Source: Opitutales bacterium (GTDB taxonomy: Bacteria; Verrucomicrobiota; Verrucomicrobiia; Opitutales; PNEW01). From it: a DNA stretch of 64,000 nt. Location of the stretch: the NCBI GenBank assembly GCA_965197745.1, contig CBDANS010000005.1:445562-509561 (forward strand), written 5' to 3'. This document shows positions 9,594 to 55,803 of this stretch, piece by piece (position 1 is the first letter of the stretch; each line of letters opens with the position of its first letter). The notes below the pieces were generated by a model that saw nothing but the letters and a program-made list of their open reading frames with translations, did not search any database and was not told where the DNA came from. The position numbers were made by a program, and so were the translations under genes.

Positions 9594-9691
9594 TTAACAA
9601 TTAACGGCTGATCGTTAAAGCGATAGATCATCAGCGAGTGTCGGGAAGAGATAATTATGGAATGATTGGACCCCGTTTTTCGTACCAATTA

Positions 9692-10688
9692 TTAAGTGAG
9701 AGAGTTCCCGGGTATTAATGGTTTTAGGATTGATGTATATGAGAGATCTTGGCGAAGTGAGGGCGTAGCCCGAACGCGGCCAAGATCTGAAAGGAATGTG
9801 ACAAACTCTTGTGGGCTTTGAAAGCCTAAACGACTGTGGGGATGATCATGGTTATAGGTCTGGCGCCATTGTTCGATTACAACTTGTGCTTCAGCCACGC
9901 TGAGCAACACTTCACGGTTCAAACACTCATCGCGTAAGCGGTTGTGAAACGACTCGATGAAACCGTTTTGCCAGGGACTGCCCGGATCGATATATATCGC
10001 CTTGATCTTTTTGTCGGACAACGACTGCTGCACTTGATGAGCAATGAATGGCTTCGCATGTCGTCGCTTCGCTCCTCGGAACACTGCCGTTGTCACTACG
10101 GATATAGCTGGGAGCTCCCTCCTTTTCAATGGCCTCGCTAAGCACAGAGAGGACATCCGATGAGGGGAGTTCACGAGCGACCCGGATATCCAGACATTCA
10201 CGCGTATATGTCTTCGCTTCGCTTGAGTGTCGTCGCTTTCAGCTCCTCGGTACATCGATCAGAGTCATCATCTTTAATGGACCGCCATGGTCTGTGCGAT
10301 CATGGACAAAGTCCCAGGACCAAAGGTGATTGCGACCGGTTGCTTTAGTAGGCGACCCCGTAGAGACCCCTTGACGGTGTCTACGCTTTTTAGGTGGCTT
10401 TACCTGCAACCCTTCTGAACGTCGTACTGCCTGAACAAACTTCCTGTTTGTTGTCCAGCCTTCCTTTACGAGCAAGGCACGGATGCGCCGGTAACCGTAG
10501 CAGGGATGTTCCCAGGACAGGGTTATAATCCGCTCGGCCAACCGCTGAGCTTTCTTACTGGCCTGCTTGGGCTGGTAGCTGAAAGTTGACCAACTGAGGC
10601 TGAGGTAGGAACAAGCCCTTCGCAACGAGCACAGCCCTCTCTCAGCCGCATCTTTTACTACTCGCTTCTTCTGCTTGGGGCTCACCAC
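9692..10688 (-). pseudogene. IS3 OrfB DDE integrase, interrupted at 10210-10252 and 10050-10081
   Basis: WSWDF, LID|YTRECL, SDNGS|FI and PGSPWQNGFIESF all join into one frame if each insert is replaced by a single nucleotide. Confidence 0.85.
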
Positions 10689-10948
10689 TTTTTTGACAGC
10701 GTTTCCTCCATTACCTGATTCTTAAGCATTTGATCAGCGAGCATCTTCTTCAACTCGGTGTTTTCTTTTTCCAGCTCTTTAAATCGCTTCGCATCGGCTA
10801 GTTCCAAATTGCCATACTTTTTACCCCAGCGATAGAAGGTCTGTTCACTCACGTTGTTGCCTCGGCAGATTTCCTCTACCGTTTTTCCGGTATCGGCTTG
10901 CCGCAGTATTGCGATGATCTGTTCTGTTGTGTATCTTTTTCTTTTCAT
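10682..10948 (-). CDS. IS3 OrfA (HTH)
   Basis: MKRKRYTTEQII...VSEQTFYRW...LEKEN..LKKMLAD. Confidence 0.93.
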   Translation of the reverse strand: MKRKRYTTEQIIAILRQADTGKTVEEICRGNNVSEQTFYRWGKKYGNLELADAKRFKELEKENTELKKMLADQMLKNQVMEETLSKKW

Positions 10949-11274
10949 GAGGTTATCTGTTTATCCCGATAACCTCTCTCTGTTAATGATACCATTTTTG
11001 GGGGTCACTCCAGGAAAGAGGAGCGACAAACGGGGACTAATATGATGTTCCTTTATTTTTTTTTAAAAATTAAATGTCATTCAAAAAATTTAAGTATTCT
11101 GAACTGTATTATTATCAAAAACCTGTAAAAAAAATAAGGTTTAAATTTCATGCTGGTATTATATGTAAAAATAAGTATAAACTATGGTATATTTAGATAT
11201 TATTTTTATTTTTAATCCTACGATTAATAGTTGAATTAAACTTTATTAAACAGGTATAGGATAAAAAAAACCGT

Positions 11275-51256: not shown

Positions 51257-51925
51257 ATGAACTTACCCTTTTTAGCAATTACCGGTAAAATAAGTATAGT
51301 GGTATCCTTATTGTTCGTTCTGCTGGTTTTTCCCAAAGCATTATTAGAGGGGAAAGAGAGCGGAGCATCGTCAGGGAAATACCCGAGTCCGTCGACTGAT
51401 ATTTCTCAAATTAAGTTGGCAAATCTCAGTTCAGATATAAATATGCTTCAAGCCAAAGTCGCGCGTCTTGAGATGCTGGTTGAGCAGCTTAACCGGGAAA
51501 ATGCTGAACTTCGGGTGGAGCTGGGAGAGAAAGCAGATAAAGATAATCAATACGTAACTAAGTCTGAGCTCTCTGGAGCGCTTAATGAACTCAGTCAGGA
51601 TCTCATCAATAATGATACAAAACAAAAGAATTCCATCATCAGCGAGGTCAGTCAATTGATGGAGCGATTGGCGATACAGACGGAGAGTGCACTGAAAGCC
51701 CTGGCTGAGTCGATTGAAGCGCAACCGGTTGTCGATCCCACAATCCAGTTTTCTGATGACTATTCCAAAGAGGGTGTAGCTTATACGGTACAAAGCGGTG
51801 ACACCCTTTCAGAAATTGCGCGACGCTTCAATTCCACCGTGAGTGATATTCAAAATGCCAACCGCATTACCGATCCCAGCAAATTACAGGTAGGGCGTAC
51901 AATTTTTGTGCCAAAATCAGAGTAA
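51257..51925 (+). CDS. Coiled-coil LysM-domain protein
   Basis: C-terminal YTVQSGDTLSEIA..F LysM domain. Confidence 0.88.
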   Translation: MNLPFLAITGKISIVVSLLFVLLVFPKALLEGKESGASSGKYPSPSTDISQIKLANLSSDINMLQAKVARLEMLVEQLNRENAELRVELGEKADKDNQYVTKSELSGALNELSQDLINNDTKQKNSIISEVSQLMERLAIQTESALKALAESIEAQPVVDPTIQFSDDYSKEGVAYTVQSGDTLSEIARRFNSTVSDIQNANRITDPSKLQVGRTIFVPKSE

Positions 51926-51932
51926 CAATTCA

Positions 51933-52946
51933 ATGGCTAAATCAAAGAAGAGACTGGGCCGCGGGTTAGACAGCCTTATCAGTCGAGGGATAAGCAAATC
52001 TAAGAAAAAAGTAAAGAAGAGGAAGACTATCCCTAAAGCGACAAAGAAGAAATCCGTAAAAAAGGCCGGGATCGTAAAAGGGGCACGTTCACAATCCAAT
52101 AATACAAAGGGACAAAGAATATCCGAAAAAAAAGACCATCGGACTGTCAGCGAAAATGGTTTTTTAGAAATCCCTCTATCTAAGATTCAAACAAATCCTT
52201 ATCAGCCGCGGCGAGTGATCAATCTCGAGCAAATCAGTGAGCTTGCCGACAGTATACGTTCAGAAGGATTACTGCAGCCAATCGTTGTTAGAAATAAGGG
52301 TGACGGCTTCGAGATTATTGCCGGGGAAAGGCGATTTCGTGCCTGTAAAGAACTTAACCTTAGAACGATCCCCGCGCGTGTGATGAAAGCAAGCGACTCA
52401 TCATCCGCGGTAATGACCATGATTGAGAACCTGCAGCGTGAGGGGCTAAATCCAGTTGACGAGGCATTAGGTTATGCGAGTTTAATTCGCGATTTTGATC
52501 TTACCCAGGAAAGAGTATCTGAGCGAGTGGGAAAGGGTAGGGCAACCGTGGCAAATTCGCTGCGGTTGTTGCAACTGGAAGAAGAAATCCAGGGATTTCT
52601 CAGCATGGGGCTAATGTCAGCGGGGCAGGCAAAAGCGCTTCTCGGAATTGATGATCAGGAACAGCGTCTAATTCTCGCGCGGCGTATAATTGAAGAGGGC
52701 TTAAGTGTGAGAGAGACGGAGAGACTCACTAAGAAGGTGAAAAGCAGCAAGGTAGTATCTATTTCAACGCGCCCCATGACGGAATCCGAAAGTGTCGCCG
52801 TTCAAGATTTAGAAAAGAAAATCTCTTCTCAGCTGAATACGAAAGTTCTCGTGCGGCATACATCGAAAAAAGGGAAAATTGTTATAGAATATTATGGCAA
52901 TGAAGATCTGCAAAGAATATTGGAGAAACTTCAATTAGCCCAGTGA
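51933..52946 (+). CDS. parB: ParB/Spo0J partition protein
   Basis: LGRGLDSLI, NPYQPR, IIAGERR, ENLQRE and an HTH. Confidence 0.94.
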   Translation: MAKSKKRLGRGLDSLISRGISKSKKKVKKRKTIPKATKKKSVKKAGIVKGARSQSNNTKGQRISEKKDHRTVSENGFLEIPLSKIQTNPYQPRRVINLEQISELADSIRSEGLLQPIVVRNKGDGFEIIAGERRFRACKELNLRTIPARVMKASDSSSAVMTMIENLQREGLNPVDEALGYASLIRDFDLTQERVSERVGKGRATVANSLRLLQLEEEIQGFLSMGLMSAGQAKALLGIDDQEQRLILARRIIEEGLSVRETERLTKKVKSSKVVSISTRPMTESESVAVQDLEKKISSQLNTKVLVRHTSKKGKIVIEYYGNEDLQRILEKLQLAQ

Positions 52947-52975: not shown

Positions 52976-54293
52976 TGGTCGTGACCACGAAAACTGGTCC
53001 ACTTGAAAAGTTAGTCTGGGTAACCTAGAAAGGACTCAGACAATGAAAGGCAAAAGATACACAACTGAAGAGAAAATACGGATGCTGCGGCAGGCGGACA
53101 AAGGGAAAACGATCCTGGAAGCATGCCGCGAGAACAACATTAGCGAACAGACTTTCCACCGCTGGAAGCGTGAGTTTGGGATGATTGATGTCGACCAGGC
53201 CAAGCGGATGAAGGAACTCTTTGAAGGAGAACGCGCGGTTAAAACGGATGCTGGCGGACAAGCTGCTGGGGATAGAGATCCTGCAGGAGACCCTCGAAAA
53301 AAAACTGTAAGCCCTGGGCACAAGCGGCAAGTGGCAGAGAGACTTGTGGCTCGGGGCCAGTGTTCGATGCGAGCGGGGTGCCGGTACTTTCGGCTGCACC
53401 GTTCCACCTATGCGTATAAGGCGAAGCATCCGGATGCTTGGTTAATGAAACTGAAGGCGGCAGTAAGGCGGTTATCACGGCAATATGCCAGGTGGGGCTA
53501 TCCGAAGATCACGAAGCTGTTGAAAGACGAAGGCTGGGAGGTGGGTAAACGTCTCGTGCAAGGTCTACGACGCGAACTGGGCTTGGCGATCCCCCAACGC
53601 AAGCCAAGACGTCGGGGCAGGGGTGTTTCCACCGGGCTGCCGACCAAGGCCGAACATCCCGGCCATGTTTGGACCTGGGATTTTATCCACGATAAGACGG
53701 TCCGCGGTGGCAGTTTAAAAATGTTGACCGTGCTCGATGAGTACACCCGCGAGTGCCGGGTGATCCATGTTGATCGCCATATCAATGCGGAAACGGTGCG
53801 CGGTATCATGCAAAAACTGCTTGCCCGTCATGGGCCGCCACAATATATTCGCAGTGACAACGGTTCCGTTCCGAGGAGCGAAGCGACGACATGCGAAGCC
53901 ATTCATTGAAAAGGAATTGAGAGCCTGGCTAACTGCGATGAAAATCAAAACCCTCTATATCGAACCAGGAAGCCCTTGGCAGAACGGATACATCGAATCG
54001 TTGCATGCCCGTTTTCGCGAGGAGTGTTTAAACCGTGAACAGCTATGGACTTTGACCGAAGCCCGCGTGGTGATCGAGGACTGGCGCTGGCTTTACAATA
54101 ATGTCCGACCCCACCGCAGCCTCGGCAATATCACCCCACGGTGCTTCGCTGAAGACATTAATACCGAAGGCTTGGGCTCCATTCGGGCTACGCCCTCATT
54201 GCGCCCAAGCCTTGACTTCCTCTACCAACTTAACTTCAACATTAACCTCTCCAGACTAACTCTCTCGGTGGACCAGTTTACGTAACCCGATCA
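52976..54293 (+). mobile_element. IS3-family element 2, orfB interrupted by the 32-nt insert
   Basis: Inverted repeats TGGTCGTGACCACGAAAACTGGTCCAC / TGATCGGGTTACGTAAACTGGTCCAC; no flanking target duplication. Confidence 0.9.
53043..54285 (+). pseudogene. IS3 OrfA/OrfB transposase with an extra T near 53220 and an insert at 53869-53900
   Basis: OrfA HTH, WTWDF, VLDEYTREC, SDNGS|FI and PGSPWQNGYIES motifs. Confidence 0.85.
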
Positions 54294-54639
54294 GGGGTCT
54301 GGCACACCCCGTTTCCATTACACCCCAAGGTGTCATACCGAAGCTGATCCAATCCTATCCAAAGAATATTCGGTCTCATTTCGTAATGCCGCACATCAGC
54401 GCGTTTTAAGTGTTGGGTAAGAAGGGTTCAGGGTGGAAGATGTCGGGCTACGCCCTCGGTACAGGGTTCAGGGTTGTAAGAGGTTTTTTCCGTTAGGATA
54501 AATCCGAATTCCGATATCGGCAATCATTATAATCCGCAATTGACAGACTCCATTTGCCATATCACATCGAGGTTGGATAAAGTTGATTACGAGAAAACAT
54601 CCCCGCCAAATGTTCTCGAATAAATACGATCTGTGTGCT

Positions 54640-55803
54640 TTACGACAACGCATCTTCGCCATCGGTCAACCACTCAAGGTTAAAACGCGCAAACACGGTG
54701 TCTCCGCTGTACGCATTTATCCCACCTTCTCCTCCTTTTTCATACAGGCAGCAGATCGTCCCGTCTTGAGCGATGCAGAGGTCGGAGTATGAAGCGCCTT
54801 TTTTGTAGATGACTTTGGAAATGGGCCAGGTGCGGCACTCGTCGTAGCTTAGACGAACAGTGAGGTGATGCCGTTCTCCCTCTTTTTCATTTCCCGGATT
54901 TGAAAAGAGAACGCGATTCCTCCCCCTCCCTTTAGGACTGTCAGACTCGAGCGTATAACGACACACGCTTGCCTGGCAGATTGGTTCCGGCAGGCCGCCA
55001 TCCCGGACGAGTGATGAAAACCATTCCCCGTTATCGTGGCTCCACCCGATTCGTCGGTGGTAGCTGAATCCTGGACCGAAAGCCTTCCGAGCCGGCCCCT
55101 CCGCCTCTCTGAAAAACTGATTACGGGAATTGATATAGAGCCATCCGTCGGCAGTCTCCAGAATCATTGACTCGTTGGCGCCCCTGTCGGTGCTGCCGCC
55201 GATTTTCCAATGAGCCCCGTGATCATCGCTGTAGATGACATGTGAATAGTCCCAATCTATCTTTGAATCTTCATGCACCATTTCGGTGTGATCGCATGCG
55301 ACTATCAATCGGCCAGATTTCAGTTGTATGCCGTGACCGGGTCCGGTTGCGTACCACGACCACTTATCGCGTTTCACGTCTCCTGTGATCTCCTTCGGCT
55401 TCGCCCAGATTGCACCGTCATCGTCACTCGACGTCACCCAGATCTGTCGAGGCGCTTTGCCCTGCAAGATAAGATCCTGTCCTCGAGGTGATCCAGCTTT
55501 ATCCTGCAGGTTCCTGCAAAAGAGCAGCCAGACAATCCCAGTATTTCTATCCTGAACCGGAGAGGGATTGCCGCTCACCCACCCATCCAGGGAAGCGATA
55601 ACCTGGACATCTTCAAAGCTCTTACCGTCATCGAAACTCCGACGAAGAAAGAGATCAATCTGATCCGAATCTCGTCCCGTAAACTTTCGTGCTTCGTTGA
55701 AGGCGAGGATCGTCCCTTTGTTGGTCGTAATTAAGGCAGGGATTCTACACTCTTGATAGCCTCGGTCGCCGGCAGTATACAGGTTGTTTTCTTCAAAAAA
55801 CAC
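54640..55803 (-). CDS. Sialidase-family (BNR/Asp-box) protein
   Basis: RIP motif; Asp boxes S.DDG..F/W and SYDECRTW; YSDL. Confidence 0.9.
   Translation of the reverse strand: MFFEENNLYTAGDRGYQECRIPALITTNKGTILAFNEARKFTGRDSDQIDLFLRRSFDDGKSFEDVQVIASLDGWVSGNPSPVQDRNTGIVWLLFCRNLQDKAGSPRGQDLILQGKAPRQIWVTSSDDDGAIWAKPKEITGDVKRDKWSWYATGPGHGIQLKSGRLIVACDHTEMVHEDSKIDWDYSHVIYSDDHGAHWKIGGSTDRGANESMILETADGWLYINSRNQFFREAEGPARKAFGPGFSYHRRIGWSHDNGEWFSSLVRDGGLPEPICQASVCRYTLESDSPKGRGRNRVLFSNPGNEKEGERHHLTVRLSYDECRTWPISKVIYKKGASYSDLCIAQDGTICCLYEKGGEGGINAYSGDTVFARFNLEWLTDGEDALS

Follow-up and report, generated by a model that had tools for sequence, protein, structure and literature searches.

REP-like micro-inserts at conserved codons of IS3 transposase genes in an Opitutales genome

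Two identical inserts in divergent IS3 copies

A 64,000-nt stretch of the genome of an Opitutales bacterium (assembly GCA_965197745.1, contig CBDANS010000005.1, positions 445,562 to 509,561; hereafter the window) contains two insertion sequences (IS) of the IS3 family whose transposase genes are interrupted by the same 32-nt micro-insert, here called S1. The first, a family-A copy (subfamily A1), occupies 52976..54294 on the plus strand, its ends having been placed by BLAST against other copies. Its transposase open reading frame (ORF; 53043..53909, plus strand) is truncated to 288 amino acids (aa), as it runs into S1 at 53869..53900 (plus strand) and ends at a TGA just beyond it, and the remainder of the catalytic domain (FIEKEL...PWQNGYIES...) follows at 53902..54285 (plus strand). 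The second, a family-B copy (B1), lies at 9663..11012 on the minus strand, with orfA at 10682-10948 and an orfB that is broken both by S1 (10050..10081, minus strand) and by a longer insert of 43 nt, S2 (10210..10252, minus strand; TACCGAGGAGC-TGAAA-GCGACGACA-CTCAAGCGAAGCGAAGAC), the latter found between GAT G and A TAT of the motif LID-E-YTREC.

The 32-mer (TTCCGAGG...GAAGCC) was present at both places with zero mismatches and was matched in 0 of 100 dinucleotide shuffles of the window, in agreement with an earlier note made from the sequence alone, which had reported the 32/32 identity. As that note had described, the insertion point lies between the G and the A of the former Glu codon in SDNGS-E-FI (G 53868 and A 53901 in the family-A copy; G 10082 and A 10049 in the family-B copy). 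The left context reads ...AGT GAC AAC GG, then T TCC or C AGT, then G, and the right context reads A TTC ATT. Empty counterparts in the same genome read GGTTCC GAG TTT ATT or GGCAGT GAG/GAA TTC ATT, such that 34 nt are found where 3 stood in insert-free copies, the net gain of 31 that had been claimed. In both window copies, translation into S1 gives SDNGS-VPRSEATTCEAIH and then a stop, and what remains of the catalytic domain is found in the +1 frame.

The divergence of the two host elements was also confirmed, as BLAST aligned them only partially, at 73-76% identity. Pfam domains HTH_Tnp_1, HTH_21, rve, and rve_3 were identified in the window fragments and in an intact 403-aa ORF of the same genome, which gives the IS3 architecture of an orfA helix-turn-helix domain and an rve DDE domain. 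The ends of the elements, which start TGACC..., are of the TG...CA type found in this family. Contigs from four public runs bridged the S1 insert; hence it is no assembly artefact of this genome.

Four insertion sites in IS3 genes

The whole host genome was surveyed (7 contigs, 4.45 Mb; positions outside the window are given below as contig:coordinate). S1 was found in 73 copies, 51 of them exact and 22 with one to three mismatches, and all 73 come after SDNGx codons of IS3 genes belonging to several subfamilies. Strict matches to the head motif of the insert numbered 117, with 71 at S1, 30 at S2, 13 at a third site named S3, three linked to tRNA genes, and none elsewhere; the 114 IS-borne matches were all in sense orientation. 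S2 is in frame but includes a TGA, and its empty site reads ATCGATGAATATACGCG. S3 is 36 nt long and lies at RLRD-E-CLN. A fourth insert, S4, has 43 nt at PW-Q-NG and is both in frame and stop-free. It was found in 13 copies (C5:25840, C7:161124, and 11 more), where it adds 14 in-frame codons (LPSEATPQRAKARIT in place of Q) shortly before the catalytic Glu. The tail of S4 (CCTCAACGAGC..AGCGAGAATAACA) is common to a 77-copy repeat of the genome G038.

Empty sites were observed in the window itself. The family-A copy has an empty S2 site at 53739..53740 (plus strand; CTCGATG^AGTAC, the caret marking the junction), and the family-B copy has an empty S4 site at 9969..9970 (minus strand; CCCTGGC^AAAACGG) and an empty S3 site at 9927..9928 (minus strand; CGCGATG^AGTGT).

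Among 76 near-full-length IS3 copies, 71 carried at least one of S1, S2, and S3 (S1 in 68, S2 in 31, and S3 in 9). The family-A transposase is encoded by a single 403-aa ORF with no -1 frameshift (L005 4927-6138; L006 5009-5932), and this ORF was intact in only two of the 76 copies, both insert-free (C4:136859 and C7:1901266). Since S1, S2, and S3 either disrupt the frame or introduce a stop, the filled copies cannot encode the full transposase by normal translation. The presence of four conserved-motif sites, together with the 114 of 117 strict matches that fall in IS3 genes, agrees with the earlier proposal of a site-specific micro-element that inactivates IS3 elements.

Structure and junctions of the micro-insert

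All inserts followed one family pattern. A G or C stands to the left of the junction, and the element opens with its head, made up of T(T/A)CCGAG(GA)(G/A)C, a loop of 2-6 nt, and G(C/T)GAC(GACA). A variable part follows, then a small hairpin, either (A)GCGAAGC(G) or a different one, and a terminal ...CA^T; the element is non-coding and ranges from 32 to 46 nt. The insert takes the place of one or two target bases (A-purine), its orientation is single, and no target duplication is formed. The stretch that replaces the 3-base Glu or Gln codon measures 34 nt at S1, 45 nt at S2, 38 nt at S3, and 45 nt at S4.

The stem pair beside the loop was compared among 331 matches in 20 genomes, where it was G..C in 293, A..T in 34 (8 loops), G..T in four, and A..C in none. 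This two-base covariation argues for a folded single strand, and the asymmetry between G..T and A..C points weakly to the strand shown here. The sequence d(GCGAAGC) is documented in PMC13037366 as an extra-stable DNA mini-hairpin. The hairpin claim rests on these published data and on the covariation measured here.

Copies outside the window elements

The head motif occurred in 20 of 151 genomes of the order, and a reversed-motif control gave 0 matches. Besides the IS3 genes, the host genome carries it downstream of tRNA-Asn and tRNA-Gln genes in tandem units in which GGTTCG is followed directly by the head and then by the tRNA 3' end from the T-loop on (ATCC...CCA). These units, which resemble the RtT repeats discussed below, lie at C6:355480-355760 (L001, about 680-960) and at C5:236480-236640 (L002). 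Each has an inverted copy of the tRNA T-stem/acceptor strand, GATGAGAA, and a small hairpin that covaries between units (GAACC-TG-GGTTC vs GAATC-GTA-GATTC), and continues with the micro-insert module and the tRNA 3' end.

A mirror image of this T-loop arrangement was observed in other Opitutales genomes, where the head adjoins GGTTAG (D-loop) of tRNA-Met 5' fragments upstream of intact tRNA-Met genes (L149 1500-1700; L158 about 1500; L134 about 1500). The tandem units there end in the first 22-24 nt of the tRNA (to GGTTAG), and the module follows directly. One more module type, antisense in orientation, also adjoins tRNAs in other genomes of the order.

A shorter module, TACCGAG-C-GCA-G-TGACATC..., was found within the Ssn-type repeats of the host genome, between GCGGC and AATCCAG. 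These repeats (TGTCATT-GCGAGGAGC-AAC-GCGACGCGGC-AATCCAG) are arranged in inverted orientation around small GIY-YIG (Ssn-like) genes at C7:1545599-1545889, C7:1541995-1542282, C7:483586-483870, and C6:787861-788152, and they have the core GAGGAGC-loop-GCGACG in common with the micro-insert. Several of the repeats beside GIY-YIG genes hold a nested TACCGAG... insert before AATCCAG.

Unrelated IS3 elements of the genome G114 (VDNGP-E-F) and of a metagenome contig (SDNGP-E-F) hold other variants of the insert at the S1 Glu codon, the latter with 38 nt instead of 34. A head-motif match in the genome G143 lies in an IS3 orfA. The metagenome scan for any S1-site insert gave seven matches, one of which was real. 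In a scan of public genome contigs, the matches listed were mostly chance matches in high-GC coding DNA, and the informative ones among them were exclusively Verrucomicrobial, from Opitutales or Puniceicoccaceae. Additionally, the sister-genus genome G060 (L171-L178) contains at least eight near-identical family-B copies with S2 only, their S1, S3, and S4 sites being empty. As S2 is in frame with a single TGA, low-level read-through is conceivable in these copies.

Inheritance and spread of the inserts

The inserts were identical across IS lineages whose flanks show a synonymous divergence (dS) of 0.4-0.9, an observation that, like the variants in unrelated IS3 elements of other genomes, is in keeping with a site-specific micro-element. 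For example, subfamilies B1 and B2 differ by a dS of 0.40, with a dN/dS ratio (omega) of 0.14. Their S1 (32 nt) and S2 (43 nt) inserts are identical over the total of 75 nt, the 126 nt between S2 and S1 contain 26 differences, and the identity of the inserts reaches only about 10-16 nt into the flanks. In subfamily A2, 13 near-identical copies comprised nine with S1 and four empty ones, with both states present on both backbone haplotypes, and the match of the filled patch to an A1-like copy extends over only about 56 nt. The second A2 haplotype has an ORF split by a 1-nt deletion. On the tree of copies, the presence of S1, S2, and S3 requires four, four, and five changes, respectively, and the combinations S1 alone, S1 with S2, all three, S1 with S3, and S3 alone all exist. 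Taken together, the identity patches, the tree of copies, and the occurrence of other variants in IS3 elements of unrelated lineages speak more for recurrent insertion than for simple inheritance: short patches would have entered selected sites repeatedly from a shared pool.

Gene conversion of the ordinary kind certainly acts among the copies as well. In one chimera (C7:1673797), the front part comes from family B and the rear part from family A, with the join at S1, and another IS copy (C6:1393301) has lost the stretch between S1 and S3; the inserts thus act as recombination points. Recombination of this kind is central to an explanation by passive spread, in which a few old accidental insertions, or templated repair from the tRNA-linked repeats, were distributed by recombination or gene conversion and amplified by transposition, the inserts having neither mobility nor targeting of their own. 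Consistent with it are the chimera and the deletion, the mosaic dS along B1 and B2 (0.11 to 0.90), and the occurrence of both A2 alleles on both haplotypes, where an adjoining TTC/TTT difference travels with the allele. We nevertheless regard passive spread as rather unlikely. The IS3 lineages of other genomes that hold different variants at the same codon are too divergent for conversion, and the four sites in one gene obey the same junction rule as the T-loop, D-loop, and Ssn-repeat sites. Moreover, the identity patches extend over only about 55-66 nt inside 20%-divergent flanks, and 0 of the 117 strict matches fall outside IS3 genes or tRNA repeats.

Removal and recoding of the inserts

The earlier note had offered as an alternative that the insert is an excisable or skippable switch controlling transposase expression, which is not supported by the present results. 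The frame offsets are unequal among sites, intact insert-free genes are present, and excision of G[...]A leaves GA, one base short of the GAG/GAA codon, which is therefore not restorable. Insert-free forms in RNA and DNA contigs, one of them in a DNA run, carry AG or AGTTT, letters without a counterpart in the filled allele. These joints are hence genuine empty-site alleles, which speaks against a skippable switch. The same joints gave no support to splice-like removal, as of a self-splicing or enzyme-spliced intron; the RNA evidence consists of assembled contigs, from which rare processed forms would escape, and the absence of a joined form in them proves nothing.

More broadly, the IS might itself retain the inserts as a device for recoding or attenuation, in which a ribosomal hop, a frameshift, read-through, or removal at the RNA or DNA level yields a little full-length transposase. 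Several observations could be read in this way: the IS inserts all enter in one codon phase (GT(T/A) CCG AGG ...) with a GAGGAG Shine-Dalgarno-like run, S2 keeps the frame and has one TGA, S4 keeps it and has no stop, the S2-only copies have multiplied in the sister genome (8/8 sampled copies of one type), B1 and B2 have multiplied without an intact B copy in this genome, and the history of the carriers is marked by purifying selection (omega 0.14). Such a device is, in our judgement, very improbable. The spacings of 34, 45, 38, and 45 nt, and of 34 vs 38 nt at the same codon, fit no single recoding mechanism. Take-off and landing codons match for S2 (AGC..AGC), are only GCG..GCG for S1, and do not match in the required frame for S3. 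Removal of G[...]A gives GA, and the AG of the insert-free RNA contigs is impossible from a filled allele. Finally, the module is found as well in tRNA spacers and Ssn repeats, which are non-coding, and intact empty copies coexist with the filled ones.

Two specific forms of recoding were rejected. Programmed bypass of the gene 60 type would need frame changes of +1, 0, and +2 at S1, S2, and S3, with no codon pair for S3 and with either 34 or 38 nt at one codon, and a ribosome hop or +1 frameshift was judged by eye to be inconsistent in codon pairs and frames between sites. Translational bypass elements (T4 gene 60 and the mitochondrial 'byps' of Magnusiomyces) are also short inserts in coding sequence, and S2 and S3 likewise hold an early stop; the micro-insert differs from them in having no consistent take-off/landing pair or frame and in the presence of its module in non-coding DNA.

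Proposed origin of the micro-inserts

The explanation that we prefer, to which we give about an even chance, is that the 32-mer belongs to an Opitutales family of non-autonomous, site-selective micro-elements, similar to repetitive extragenic palindromes (REPs), that inactivate IS3 transposases. Empty sites would be filled from the shared pool as a short patch, possibly through insertion by a trans-acting enzyme on folded single-stranded DNA. Once filled, IS copies would go on multiplying non-autonomously, with the few intact copies driving them. On balance, the micro-element would act as a parasite of a parasite, with nearly all IS3 copies disabled.

Several observations weigh against this explanation. 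No enzyme is tied to the element. The sole Y1_Tnp gene (C6:163380) is flanked by an unrelated 25-nt inverted repeat and lacks the micro-insert motif; across genomes, Y1_Tnp was found in 18 of the 20 motif-positive and 59 of the 131 motif-negative genomes, although genome size and kinship both confound these figures. Just 5 of the 20 motif-positive genomes (three of the five in one family) were found to have an Ssn-like GIY-YIG homologue, vs 6 of the 131 motif-negative ones, and with this query none was found in G038, which has 77 copies. By association, a link to REP-associated tyrosine transposases (RAYTs) and a link to Ssn proteins are both unconvincing. No autonomous parent was found, the 615 GCGAAGC sites without the head motif being IS coding sequence or singletons, and insertion de novo was not observed. 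Ordinary gene conversion could also produce the A2 pattern, and the target consensus, [G/C]^A-purine and often then T, is too short for the observed specificity.

The fold of the insert and the state of family B are further difficulties. By nearest-neighbour prediction the DNA fold was weaker than that of shuffled sequences (z of +1.4 for the top strand and +2.1 for the bottom strand), although the folding model lacks terms for GNA mini-hairpins, so that this result is neither for nor against the hairpin. The hairpin of the earlier note thus stands on the published data and the stem covariation, and unusual stability does not emerge from the standard fold. Moreover, this genome has no intact family-B transposase to account for B1 (9 copies) and B2 (15 copies), both of which have the appearance of recent bursts. 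Mobilisation of the B copies in trans has to be assumed, and the strongest argument left for the inserts being tolerated to some degree is this absence of an intact B transposase despite the bursts.

A directed anti-transposon process would account for the same damage in another way. Either the host writes a hairpin cassette into IS3 codons, or the IS3 transposase itself, through aberrant strand transfer in cis, joins small hairpin DNAs with a CA-3' end. The extent of the damage (71/76 copies struck, with an intact ORF in only 2) and the choice of the most conserved catalytic-domain motifs as targets would suit such a process. Additionally, the CA with which every element terminates is the end that IS3-type and retroviral DDE enzymes use. 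We consider the process decidedly unlikely, given that no gene is linked to the inserts, that the 5' end of the element is not TG and is unlike the IS ends, and that action in cis leaves the tRNA-linked and Ssn-repeat sites unexplained.

A more far-reaching reading can also be formulated, in which an as yet undescribed insertion machinery directed at single strands writes a G/A-hairpin cassette after G or C at loop-like DNA, including tRNA T- and D-loops, the tails of Ssn repeats, and the four IS3 codons. In Opitutales, it would represent either a hyperparasite or a host 'immune' process that silences about 97% of IS3 copies, and it would also be the origin of the RtT-type tRNA-linked repeats, which have been known in E. 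coli since 1978. This reading is put forward tentatively and seems unlikely.

Relation to known repeats and mobile elements

RtT is described as a processed RNA and not as a mobile insert, and to our knowledge it has not been found in IS genes. The tRNA-linked units of the host genome resemble RtT (RF00391; E. coli tyrT-rttR) in the succession of an intact tRNA, a spacer, GGATGAGAA, a T-arm-like GGTTCG(A), a G/A-rich hairpin with GCGAAGCG, and the tRNA 3' end from the T-loop, and a similarly built hairpin (CTC-GA-GC-GCCA-GC-GA-GAG) is present in the E. coli rtT unit. The Rfam searches gave tRNAs and a sub-threshold RtT only: the tRNA-linked copy scored 23.7 bits against RF00391, below the gathering threshold of 45 (E = 0.015 on 293 nt), and the IS inserts had no match.

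Another close parallel is provided by the small dispersed repeats (SDRs) of cyanobacteria, reportedly described by Elhai et al. in 2008 (Genome Res 18:1484) as folding repeats of 21-27 nt that interrupt conserved sequences, with mobility inferred from filled vs empty copies and the enzyme unknown. They differ in phylum and sequence from the micro-inserts, and SDRs are not known to be restricted to transposase catalytic codons or tRNA loops.

Elements of the IS200/IS605 type have hairpins of about 40 nt per end, a conserved target of 4-5 nt, and precise insertion. The micro-insert resembles these elements, palindrome-associated transposable elements, and REP/RAYT systems in the lack of target duplication, the fixed orientation to the target, the short adjoining specific sequence, the small hairpins near both ends, and the existence of short non-autonomous forms. 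It differs from IS200/IS605 in that it has 32-46 nt in all, a target of roughly [G/C]^AR, and one or two replaced bases; its left flanks (TTCCG, CAGTG, CGATG, CTGGC, GTTCG, and GTTAG) show no conserved target. As regards REPs or REPINs with a RAYT, the Y1 gene is not flanked by the motif, the GTAG head is absent, and 114 of the 117 matches are intragenic in IS3. Miniature inverted-repeat transposable elements are a poor match, as there are no terminal inverted repeats, no target-site duplication, and no likeness to IS ends, the last of which also led to the rejection of an origin from IS ends. In comparison with integron attC sites (GTTRRRY, crossover G^TT), the left junction is G^TTCC or G^TACC and the right one CA^T, and an RYYYAAC partner is missing.

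The nearest kinds of repeat are the CGTC-tagged REPs, dRS3, NTS, and Ssn-related motifs (SRMs), which are presented by Di Nocera et al. 2013 (PMC3733652) and Chenal et al. 2025 (PMC11893778) as short palindromes whose unpaired tails mostly fit CCA, which lack a dedicated transposase and sometimes occur in coding regions; Opitutus is noted as REP-rich in the former. Since very small REP-like repeats that enter coding regions are thus published (PMC3733652), the statement in the earlier note that no described system resembles the insert was too strong. In addition to the core common to the micro-insert and the Ssn-type repeats of this genome, clear differences were observed. Compared with SRM/NTS, the micro-insert has neither a TGTC/GTCWY (HGTCWY) head nor an AATCCAG tail, having G^T(T/A)CC and ...CA instead. 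Compared with CGTC-type REPs, its stem has only two Watson-Crick pairs with G/A-rich flanks, and it is not extragenic or clustered, being found at a few fixed IS3 codons and tRNA loops. Across genomes, it is only weakly associated with Ssn genes (5/20).

The micro-insert is best placed with the very small mobile repeats of REP-like type. Its unusual traits are that it keeps strictly to a few IS3 catalytic-domain codons and tRNA loops and that an IS family is almost completely silenced. The literature search, which did not extend to the supplement of intragenic REPs in PMC3733652, yielded no account of inserts of this kind in IS3 genes.

If the preferred explanation is true, REP-like micro-repeats can be highly site-selective and can brake insertion sequences. 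The presence of filled and empty alleles of one site within one genome would make a search for the enzyme practical. Three classes of repeats would be linked, namely the CGTC/Ssn-type REPs, the RtT tRNA-linked repeats, and tiny intragenic inserts. For genome annotation, the inserts would explain Opitutales IS3 genes that appear 'frameshifted' at fixed places.

Other features of the IS3 genes

An integrase-bearing element was found in IS3 genes at the T-loop-like ATCGAATCG, the codon of the catalytic IES motif (C7:1066385, C1:24256, C6:1180519, and C7:1693031). The micro-inserts were considered as scars of this element and the idea was rejected, as the element sits at ATCGAATCG and its junctions lack the micro-insert motif; the two are separate phenomena. 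Tyrosine integrase genes lie directly upstream of two of the four insert-free copies. In the window, the family-A copy has as neighbours a ParB-like gene and a BNR/sialidase-like gene (51906-52946 and 54640-55803), and nothing remarkable was observed there.

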